A stretch of DNA of 64,000 nucleotides from Promethearchaeota archaeon (GTDB lineage Archaea > Asgardarchaeota > Lokiarchaeia > Sigyniarchaeales > SOKP01). The notes beneath the pieces were generated by a model. The model did no database searches. It saw nothing but the letters and a program-made list of their open reading frames with translations, and was not told the origin of the DNA. Positions 28,194 through 52,819 of the stretch are shown here, one piece after another (the stretch's first letter is position 1; the number at the start of each line of letters is the position of its first letter). The position numbers were made by a program, and so were the translations under genes. Where the stretch lies: positions 192,001-256,000 of the forward strand of contig JBHLLT010000002.1 of assembly GCA_048938855.1 (NCBI GenBank), in the 5' to 3' direction.

Positions 28194-28264
28194 TATATTT
28201 ATACAATAATTTTTCTATTAAATTAATTTTAAATTTATATAATTTATTTTCTAATAAACTTCTG

Positions 28265-28771
28265 GTGATCAATATTCACTTAGTCCTAACTTTTTTTCAT
28301 CAAATTAATGGCCCAAGTGTTTTATTATCTTACCCAGATGAAAAATTAGAAGAAAATCTCATCAACAAGTTAAAGAAATTTTTTGATTTAGATATTGATG
28401 AAACGTTTTTTGAAATAATATTAATAACTAAAAAAAAGAAAATAATTAATTTTAGTTTTGAGATCCCGTCGGAGTGGGCTCGAGGTAAAAAAGAATTTGT
28501 TATGCTCTCTTTAATAATGAAAAGAGAATATAAAAGTGAAGATCTTTACGCGTTCTTGGTCGATTCATGTTATAAAATCATAAATACTAAGAATGTATAT
28601 AAAGCACTCTATAAAAATTCAGATTTCCATTATAATGACATAGAAATTGATCTAAACTTTGAGATAATCAGAAAAATACTATTTAATTGTTTAAATAATT
28701 TGATATTAAGGATTGAAGATAAGATTAAAGGTGTAGATAAAAAAGAACCTTTTCCGTTTTCTAAAAAATAG
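28265..28771 (+). CDS. Longin/uDENN-like domain protein (folliculin/NPRL2/SMCR8-like)
   Basis: N-terminal LTFFHQINGPSVLLSYP (F..xGP.+..xP) and FSFEIPSEWARGKKEFVMLSLI (ARG hairpin as in the folliculin/SMCR8 longin). Confidence 0.6.
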   Translation: MINIHLVLTFFHQINGPSVLLSYPDEKLEENLINKLKKFFDLDIDETFFEIILITKKKKIINFSFEIPSEWARGKKEFVMLSLIMKREYKSEDLYAFLVDSCYKIINTKNVYKALYKNSDFHYNDIEIDLNFEIIRKILFNCLNNLILRIEDKIKGVDKKEPFPFSKK

Positions 28772-28806
28772 AAATTTTTATAATTTCATTATTCTATTTA
28801 TATATT

Positions 28807-29014
28807 GGGACAACAATGACGGGCTAAATGCGTCAATCGAGGGCTCATAAAAATATTTGAATATATGATGATTATGAAGCGCATGAGTACGCATACACTA
28901 GAGTTGAGTAATCAATACATCTCCTGGAAAAATGGGCTCTTAACTTAGCAACAGATCAACGGTCTAGCAATGAAGTTTGAGTCAGTACCCTAACAGGAAA
29001 CATGATTACGTCCC
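28807..29014 (+). ncRNA. Candidate ~208-nt structured non-coding RNA, class unknown
   Basis: GC-enriched island in an AT-rich spacer; closing helix GGGAC/GTCCC; several internal stems including a GTAA (GNRA) tetraloop hairpin; TATA-like TTTATAAT ~24 nt upstream; no long ORF. Confidence 0.55.
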
Positions 29015-29130
29015 AAAAAGGCATATAAATTAAAGCCTAGCACGAGAGAACATTTTTGATTTGAAAGGTATATCCTTAATATGAAAAAACAGTGTTAGTG
29101 TTTTAGGCAACAATAATATGCTGAAATTTT

Positions 29131-29601
29131 TTAAAGCATACCAATGGAATCAGATCTAAATAATTCCTTCATTTCCTTACCTAACTCCGCTTGATCGGTT
29201 TGAAGATACCTGTTTAGAATTAAAGCAATTTTTGGGGACCATTTTTTCATTATAGCTCGAATGAAACCAATTTGAGCATTTTTATCCGCCACAATACATA
29301 AAACTCCTTTTCCAACTTTCATTGAAAAGATCATCCCTTCAAGATATTCGGTAATTTGCAAATCAATAGCCCCATAACCTAGAATATGACCCTGTTCCTC
29401 TCCTGCAACAAAAACAGCACCCCCTATAGCACCAATTTTTTCAACAGAGATCCCATTTTCATCAGAAAATTTAAATTTAGCTTGACTTAAAATCGTTATT
29501 CCTGTATCATCAGTGATGAGCGCAAATTTTAACCCGGGAGCACTATTTATGATTAAGGTTAAAATCTTCTTTAATCTAAGCTCATCCTCAGTGTAACTCA
29601 A
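29131..29601 (-). CDS. Roadblock/LC7 (MglB/LAMTOR-like) protein
   Basis: ALITDDTGITILS, helix EKIGAIGGAVF, GVLCIVADKNAQIGFIR. Confidence 0.85.
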   Translation of the reverse strand: MSYTEDELRLKKILTLIINSAPGLKFALITDDTGITILSQAKFKFSDENGISVEKIGAIGGAVFVAGEEQGHILGYGAIDLQITEYLEGMIFSMKVGKGVLCIVADKNAQIGFIRAIMKKWSPKIALILNRYLQTDQAELGKEMKELFRSDSIGML

Positions 29602-29809: not shown

Positions 29810-30157
29810 TTAGAAAAGCTCTTGTGATTTAATTAAACCTTTTAAAGGTCTTAGCCGACTCTTATATTCTTTAGATTTATCCAATAATACTAATAGCTTG
29901 TAATTTTTAGTTTTGTCTAAATCTCGTTTAATTTGAACTAAATGTGGATCCTCTATAAACCCCCCCTTTTTAACAATTGCAGATAAAGCCAAAGTGTTTT
30001 CAAGTACCCACAATTTCTTCGATATTTTAGACGCGATTGGGAAACCATGGCGATCGGTAATAACTCCGGCAACAAAGCTTGGGAAATTTTTCTCGATCCT
30101 ATATAAAAAATAATTAACCTCACTTTGGTTTATTAGTTTATCCATTCTTTTTAGCAC
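29810..30157 (-). CDS. Roadblock/LC7-like protein (short, divergent)
   Basis: AGVITDRHGFPIAS motif followed by helix and strands; likely start is the ATG four codons in, after an AGGTG SD. Confidence 0.6.
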   Translation of the reverse strand: MLKRMDKLINQSEVNYFLYRIEKNFPSFVAGVITDRHGFPIASKISKKLWVLENTLALSAIVKKGGFIEDPHLVQIKRDLDKTKNYKLLVLLDKSKEYKSRLRPLKGLIKSQELF

Positions 30158-31357: not shown

Positions 31358-31612
31358 TTAATTTATTTTAGTATAAATTTTGTCGTCGGGGTTAAAAGAT
31401 TGATTAGATAAAGCTTTGATTGAAATAAAGGGAAAATCTATTGGACCGAAAACATCTTTAATAAATCCAATTTTTTCATACTTCTCATTGTACACTGAGT
31501 TTTTAATTATTTGTTCTAATTTATTATTCCATTGTTTTGCTCTAAAGATCTGATGATTTTTTGAGGATTTTCCGAGATAATATAGATTTAATTTAACCCA
31601 GTTCTTTTTCAA
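31358..31612 (-). CDS. gar1: H/ACA RNP protein Gar1/Naf1
   Basis: IGFIKDVFGPIDFPFISIK motif; gar1-tfb adjacency is conserved in archaea. Confidence 0.8.
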   Translation of the reverse strand: MKKNWVKLNLYYLGKSSKNHQIFRAKQWNNKLEQIIKNSVYNEKYEKIGFIKDVFGPIDFPFISIKALSNQSFNPDDKIYTKIN

Positions 31613-52714: not shown

Positions 52715-52819
52715 GGCAAAGTGGCGTAGCCCGGAGTGCATTGGAATATTCCCGATGACGGGTAGGAACGCACTAGACTGAAGATCTAGGTATCGTGAGT
52801 TCAAATCTCACCTTTGCCA
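52715..52819 (+). tRNA. tRNA-Phe (anticodon GAA) with a ~31-nt intron in the D-loop (52735-52765)
   Basis: Acceptor GGCAAAG/CTTTGCC+A, anticodon arm CTAGA-CTGAAGA-TCTAG, T arm GTGAG-TTCAAAT-CTCAC; D stem GCGT/ACGC encloses 40 nt. Confidence 0.88.

Follow-up and report, generated by a model that had tools for sequence, protein, structure and literature searches.

Gene Organization and Limits of the RNA Gene

The locus was analyzed within a stretch of 64,000 nucleotides from a Promethearchaeota archaeon (the window). On the basis of conservation, covariation and RNA contigs, we place an RNA gene on its forward strand at positions 28807–29115. The gene lies between an ORF of 168 amino acids without a Pfam match (28265–28771, forward strand) and a convergent roadblock-like gene (29131–29601, reverse strand), which adjoin the RNA in 42 and 64 of 70 loci, respectively. 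A further ORF is found in the neighborhood (29810–30157, reverse strand), and the RNA gene sits downstream of gar1-tfb.

The TATA box proposed in the original prediction is present: TTTATAAT occupies positions 28777–28784 (forward strand), its first T lying 30 nt upstream of G28807. Of 49 homologues, 48 have a TATA-like box 28–32 nt upstream (−28 to −32), which is retained also at loci with a different upstream gene. The 5′ end of the gene was inferred from the TATA spacing and the 3′ end from the last ACA box plus 3 nt. All motifs listed in the original prediction are found where it placed them. The description of the locus as a GC-enriched island holds against the window (40 vs. 28%), but not against nearby coding DNA, which reaches 42–43%. 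The single sequence taken alone is weak evidence for an RNA gene, with a fold z-score of only −1.93; it is conservation and covariation that make the gene real.

Conservation and Presence in RNA Libraries

By BLAST, 49 of 60 family genomes contain the element; with a covariance model, a single copy was detected in 110 of 121. With a second covariance model, 92 of 150 phylum genomes were positive, spread over 17 families. The stems of the RNA covary. The RNA had been proposed to end at GTCCC (29014), for a length of about 208 nt. When flanks are included in the alignment, conservation continues beyond GTCCC to approximately position 29112, the end of a third conserved hairpin, and the gene measures approximately 308 nt (28807 to ~29115).

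Metatranscriptome contigs from four runs, selected for containing this stretch, are restricted to 28824–29106, apart from one stray match of 36 bases at 28223. A 282-nt contig (4 differences) and a 270-nt contig both lie entirely inside the gene and span position 29014, the end first proposed. Neither the strand nor the exact ends of the RNA can be read from the contigs. None of the contigs extends into either flanking ORF, which is weak support alone given how the runs were selected. The proposal of an independently transcribed, structured non-coding RNA of the L7Ae type, with its own TATA box, is supported.

The RNA Comprises Three H/ACA Hairpins

The fold consists of three hairpins built alike: above a lower stem and an internal loop, a 10-nt stem leads to a K-turn or K-loop, and the hairpin is followed by an ANA triplet. 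Motif 1 (28829–28897) has its lower stem at 28829–28833/28889–28893, its upper stem at 28843–28852 and its ACA box at 28895–28897. The corresponding elements of motif 2 (28923–29002) are located at 28923–28926/28994–28997, 28938–28947 and 29000–29002, and those of motif 3 (29035–29112), which falls outside the coordinates originally predicted, at 29035–29043/29098–29108, 29050–29059 and 29110–29112; all are on the forward strand. The combination of lower stem, pocket and upper stem that characterizes an H/ACA hairpin thus occurs three times, in stems with two-sided changes. In archaeal H/ACA RNAs, the K-turn or K-loop is positioned 8–11 nt (best 10) above the pocket, and the ANA box 14–16 nt 3′ of the top of the pocket (PMC4652768, PMC7075261). 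Here, the K-turn lies 10 nt above the pocket in all three motifs. The TGA of the bulged strand is invariant (50 of 50 homologues), and in this sequence faces AA in motif 1, TA in motif 2 and GA in motif 3.

ANA boxes are recognized by pattern in 50, 44, and 49 of 50 homologues for motifs 1, 2, and 3, respectively. Their distance from the top of the loop is 14, 17, and 16 nt in this sequence. Across homologues it is 14–15 nt for motif 1 (in 50 of 50), 13–20 nt for motif 2 and mostly 16–17 nt for motif 3. The 17-nt spacing of motif 2 exceeds the 14–16 nt range by one nucleotide; it is tolerated in one study (PMC7075261) but too long by another (PMC2377435).

When 50 homologues were aligned with plain MAFFT, without any fitting to the proposed fold, 83% of the cells are paired, against 37–44% in slid controls, and 31 of 66 pairs show two-sided changes; two helices scored low in it because of alignment shifts. 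In a model-fitted alignment that includes distant families, and that leans toward the model, two-sided changes were seen at 48 of 53 pairs.

Three further elements connect the first two hairpins. The closing stem P1 pairs 28807–28811 with 29010–29014; its first three pairs are retained in every row with letters, and two-sided changes occur in distant families. An additional K-turn is formed by a box C-like strand (AATGACGG, 28812–28822, forward strand) and a box D-like partner, CTAGA-GTT (28898–28905); its TGA is present in 50 of 50 homologues and its flanking stems covary. Helix P2 pairs TAATCA (28909–28914) with TGATTA (29003–29008) directly beneath the second ACA box, with 99% of cells paired and two-sided changes at all six pairs across families. 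The extra K-turn closes motif 1, P2 closes motif 2, and P1 closes both.

This fold replaces several of the stems first proposed. Neither TTGA-GTAA-TCAA nor CCT-AAC-AGG is conserved as a hairpin; their strands form part of the helices TAATCA/TGATTA and CCTG/CAGG. The TGACG/CGTCA stem shows no two-sided changes in 50 homologues. The proposed pairing of ATGCGT with ACGCAT does covary (GC in 32, AU in 14 homologues), but since TGACG/CGTCA does not, there is no support for the switch or pseudoknot suggested from it. The perfect C box at 28865 is present in sequence, but represents a bulged K-turn strand, hence the absence of a CTGA D box after it. Among the other pairings considered, GAGTT/GGCTC, suggested by RNAalifold, was rejected for lack of two-sided changes (0). 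TAATCA/TGATTA was also rejected as the P4 helix of RNase P/MRP, since this helix is nested and the true RNase P gene is found on another contig.

The homologues include departures from the three-motif plan: one of 193 nt without motif 2, one seemingly without motif 1 (another genome of the same family has G at 2495), and an additional copy of motif 3 about 480 nt off in one genome (G141, L128:479-587). The loci concerned are L163 (G254), L159 (G184), and L128:479-587 (G141).

Other readings are that the element belongs to the 3′ UTR of the convergent roadblock gene, as a SECIS-like structure or terminator, or that it is a switch RNA or a reduced form of RNase P/MRP or SRP RNA. The roadblock gene is a frequent neighbor, K-turn cores resemble SECIS cores, and short RNase P RNAs have the size of the 208-nt P1 domain. 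However, the RNA occurs without a roadblock neighbor at six loci (L035, L114–L116, L121, and L122), the TATA box, K-turns and ANA boxes are all on the forward strand, and the RNA contigs enter neither ORF. The absence of covariation in the alternative TGACG/CGTCA stem argues against a switch. That the RNA is neither RNase P nor SRP RNA, as originally stated, is confirmed by the lack of such Rfam matches at the locus and by the location of the RNase P (134.9 bits) and SRP genes on other contigs. These readings are largely refuted, and we consider them scarcely credible.

Relationship to HgcG/Pab40

With high confidence, we assign the locus to the box H/ACA guide RNAs: the RNA is encoded in single copy, is transcribed independently and is probably the orthologue of HgcG/Pab40 in Asgard archaea. 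It had been regarded as an RNA of unknown class; its three-motif H/ACA structure and transitive homology to Rfam HgcG/Pab40 now assign it to a known class. The evidence for this is computational, and comprises its conservation, fold and boxes, its complementarity to rRNA, its occurrence in RNA libraries and the genes for the proteins.

An Rfam search at gathering and E-value thresholds returned no match at the locus other than a chance lncRNA hit, and a direct search of five genomes with RF00064 (HgcG) gave only chance matches elsewhere. Eight of 20 distant Asgard homologues do match RF00064, along the whole model or the greater part of it (E-values 7e-12 to 7e-5). Distant homologues score 18–52 bits (best 51.9), below the gathering threshold of 77 bits. 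As neither this sequence nor any homologue reaches that threshold, we file the RNA as a probable orthologue and not as an Rfam member. In the reverse direction, a covariance model of the Asgard RNA matches motif 1 of Thermococcus HgcG (E-value 2e-5), using HgcG sequence taken from two Thermococci genomes (211–213 bits with RF00064).

HgcG/Pab40/Pf7 of the Thermococcales (RF00064) and the Asgard RNA have three motifs in the same order (PMC2377435, PMC4652768), the first directed to the U2496 site and the third to helix 69. In Pyrococcus abyssi, motif 1 of Pab40 acts at U2588 and motif 3 in helix 69 (PMC2377435), and motif 2 weakly modifies U1932 (PMC2377435, PMC4652768). Motif 1 of Thermococcus HgcG has a nearly identical pocket in the same U2496 context, with CGAGG in both RNAs and a 3′ guide of GCGA in HgcG versus GCA here. 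HgcG motif 2 shares ACCC on the 3′ side, and motif 3 the GTTA 3′ guide. The RNAs differ in the target of motif 2 (U2554 here, P. abyssi U1932 for Pab40), and in the number of unpaired target bases in motif 3 (5–6 here, 2 in HgcG/Pab40). The fourth K-turn, P2 and P1 are found here only, whereas Thermococcus HgcG runs from motif to motif.

An enlarged unpaired loop over helix 69 is also known from stem-loop 2 of Haloferax volcanii sR-h45, where one pocket with an unpaired UVUN generates the pseudouridines equivalent to yeast 2258 and 2260 (PMC7075261). sR-h45 is a two-motif RNA with another 5′ target, and is likened to motif 3 by description, not by sequence.

Prediction of rRNA Targets

The 23S rRNA of this genome is not in the assembly. 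Its only long rRNA, on contig C18 (loci L054 and L059), is only 68% (23S) and 79–83% (16S) similar to rRNA of the same genus, whereas a 185-nt 16S end on contig C40 is 99% similar; C18 is probably contamination. As C18 is foreign, we used the 23S and 16S rRNA of relatives of the same genus, and scored every U of both for each pocket. Position numbers are those of E. coli, by our own count from known landmarks; yeast Um2921 was assumed to correspond to E. coli Um2552. Published offsets equate yeast 2826 with 2457 and 2260 with 1917 (PMC11077068).

For each pocket, bipartite pairing of at least 8 bp around an unpaired U was found on the relatives' 23S rRNA, with 10, 11, and 9–10 bp for motifs 1, 2, and 3. 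The top-ranked site is in each case a U with a pseudouridine at its yeast counterpart (25S 2865, 2923, and 2258; PMC8307265), out of approximately 46 such sites in yeast overall. Motifs 2 and 3 rank these sites first only if 3–5 unpaired bases are allowed. The best score on shuffled rRNA equalled the real one in 3–13 (motif 1), 21 (motif 2), and 19 (motif 3) of 100 shuffles, so that each pocket singly exceeds chance only modestly.

The guides of motif 1, ATCGAGG (28836–28842) and GCA (28881–28883), are predicted to target U2496 through 10 bp (3 + 7) with UN unpaired, and the pocket geometry is canonical everywhere. The guides of motif 2, AATGGGC (28931–28937) and CAG (28983–28985), find their best site at the predicted target U2554 in the A-loop, with 11 bp (4 + 7) and 3 nt unpaired; at least 8 bp are formed in 49 of 50 homologues, and in genome G066 the pocket is canonical, with 10 bp and UN unpaired. 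Rejected sites for this motif include helix 89 for the 5′ guide (10 bp in some genera, 8 bp in this genus, with no U in pocket register), and U2585/U2586, where none of 50 homologues reaches 8 bp. A match of GAGTCAG to helix 69 derived from the foreign rRNA on C18.

Because helix 92 varies, motif 2 provides a real test of guide-target pairing. In 10 of 13 families with a readable 3′ guide, C, U or G at 2551 faces G, A or C in the guide, and changes at 2560–2561 are matched in families f8, f9, and f17; mismatches occur in f9, f10, f13, f17, and f27. These counts were read by eye, by family and with no correction for kinship. Family f12 (L204 and L207, with L153 and L169) has C at 2554, yet its 3′ guide compensates the change at 2551, which pseudouridylation does not explain.

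The guides of motif 3, GAGAGA (29044–29049) and GTTA (29094–29097), have their best site at U1915 in helix 69, the predicted target, with 4 + 5 bp and 5 nt unpaired (5–6 nt in the family). At least 8 bp with helix 69 are found in 50 of 50 and in 20 of 25 homologues. Because of repeats the register can slide, and the sequence therefore points to U1915 as the most likely target, possibly with U1917, or to U1921 in a slid register.

The behavior of motifs 2 and 3 raises the possibility that this H/ACA-type RNP uses one or more pockets to chaperone rRNA folding, motif 2 resembling yeast snR10 in its processing role, or modifies another U. The compensated guide of f12 and the 3 and 5–6 unpaired nucleotides of motifs 2 and 3 would fit such a role, and many predicted targets in P. 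abyssi are unconfirmed (PMC2377435, PMC11077068). Against it stand the canonical geometry of motif 1 everywhere and of motif 2 in G066, and the precedents for enlarged loops: pockets leaving four bases unpaired work in Haloferax sR-h45 (PMC7075261), as do those leaving three in Pab19 (PMC2377435). We regard this alternative as unlikely, although the least improbable of those considered.

Predicted Protein Partners and Proposed Mechanism

The genome encodes Cbf5, with its GTLDP catalytic motif intact, Nop10, L7Ae, and a Gar1-like protein. The gene for the latter H/ACA RNP protein (31358–31612, reverse strand) matches Pfam Gar1 with an E-value of 9.6e-7 and 28.9 bits, just below the cut-off of 29.3, and is located beside tfb, 2.2 kb from the RNA.

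For protein binding, catalysis, the exact uridine and the role of the extra helices, we infer the following for a guide RNA of the HgcG/Pab40 type. Each hairpin would bind L7Ae at its apical K-turn, while Cbf5, together with Nop10 and Gar1, would contact the lower stem and ANA box. Pre-23S rRNA would pair with both strands of the pocket, and Cbf5 would isomerize the exposed U: U2496 in the peptidyl-transferase center for motif 1, U2554 in the A-loop for motif 2, and helix 69 for motif 3. The extra K-turn, P2 and P1 would join motifs 1 and 2 in a single domain and probably shield the 5′ end. The mechanism is that of a textbook H/ACA RNA; its variant part is the fourth K-turn, P2 and P1.

The basal K-turn could also be read as part of a composite C/D-H/ACA RNA, in which the C-like and D-like strands flanking motif 1 would direct 2′-O-methylation through recruitment of Nop5-fibrillarin. 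It does carry the C/D consensus, nearly perfect in G254 (ATGACGA with CTGA), and in Pab21 a C/D motif shares its transcript with an H/ACA motif (PMC2377435). However, the sequence 5′ of the D-like and D′-like boxes varies and is taken up by internal pairing, and some families (f10) lack the motif. As no free conserved guide of 10–12 nt was found next to these boxes in the homologue alignment, a methylation role is unsupported, and we judge this reading highly improbable. A new RNP architecture is somewhat less remote but still improbable. It would either nest an H/ACA hairpin within a C/D core recruiting Nop5-fibrillarin, or use motif 2, which f12 retains despite its C at 2554, to chaperone folding of the A-loop without modifying it. 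If true, it would represent an archaeal forerunner of the composite or dual-function sno/scaRNAs of eukaryotes.

As an H/ACA guide, this RNA is predicted to serve three functional-center pseudouridines, a task divided in yeast among three or four snoRNAs. The latter, snR46, snR10, and snR191/snR3, are two-hairpin RNAs without K-turns, and Asgard archaea are the closest archaeal relatives of eukaryotes. By numbering offset the rRNA sites are the same (25S 2865, 2923, 2258/2260, and 2264; PMC8307265), a likeness of target site only, for which no sequence homology is claimed. No Asgard H/ACA RNA was described in the part of the Asgard and Loki literature covered. The gene is conserved across much of the phylum and missed by Rfam, and its alignment could extend RF00064.

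Additional Observations

The SRP RNA of this genome (G000, contig C70, 155534–155862, L053) would likewise be left unannotated, because its 72.4 bits fall below the Rfam cut-off of 96.5. Close to the guide targets, the 23S genes of some relatives contain inserted sequence, within or next to helix 69 and around position 2600 (L078 in G041, L081 in G038, L065 in G058); these insertions are possibly rRNA introns. Elsewhere in the window, positions 52760–52819 (forward strand) match the Rfam tRNA family with 31 bits, without a D arm and uncalled by ARAGORN, and may correspond to the 3′ part of an intron-containing tRNA.
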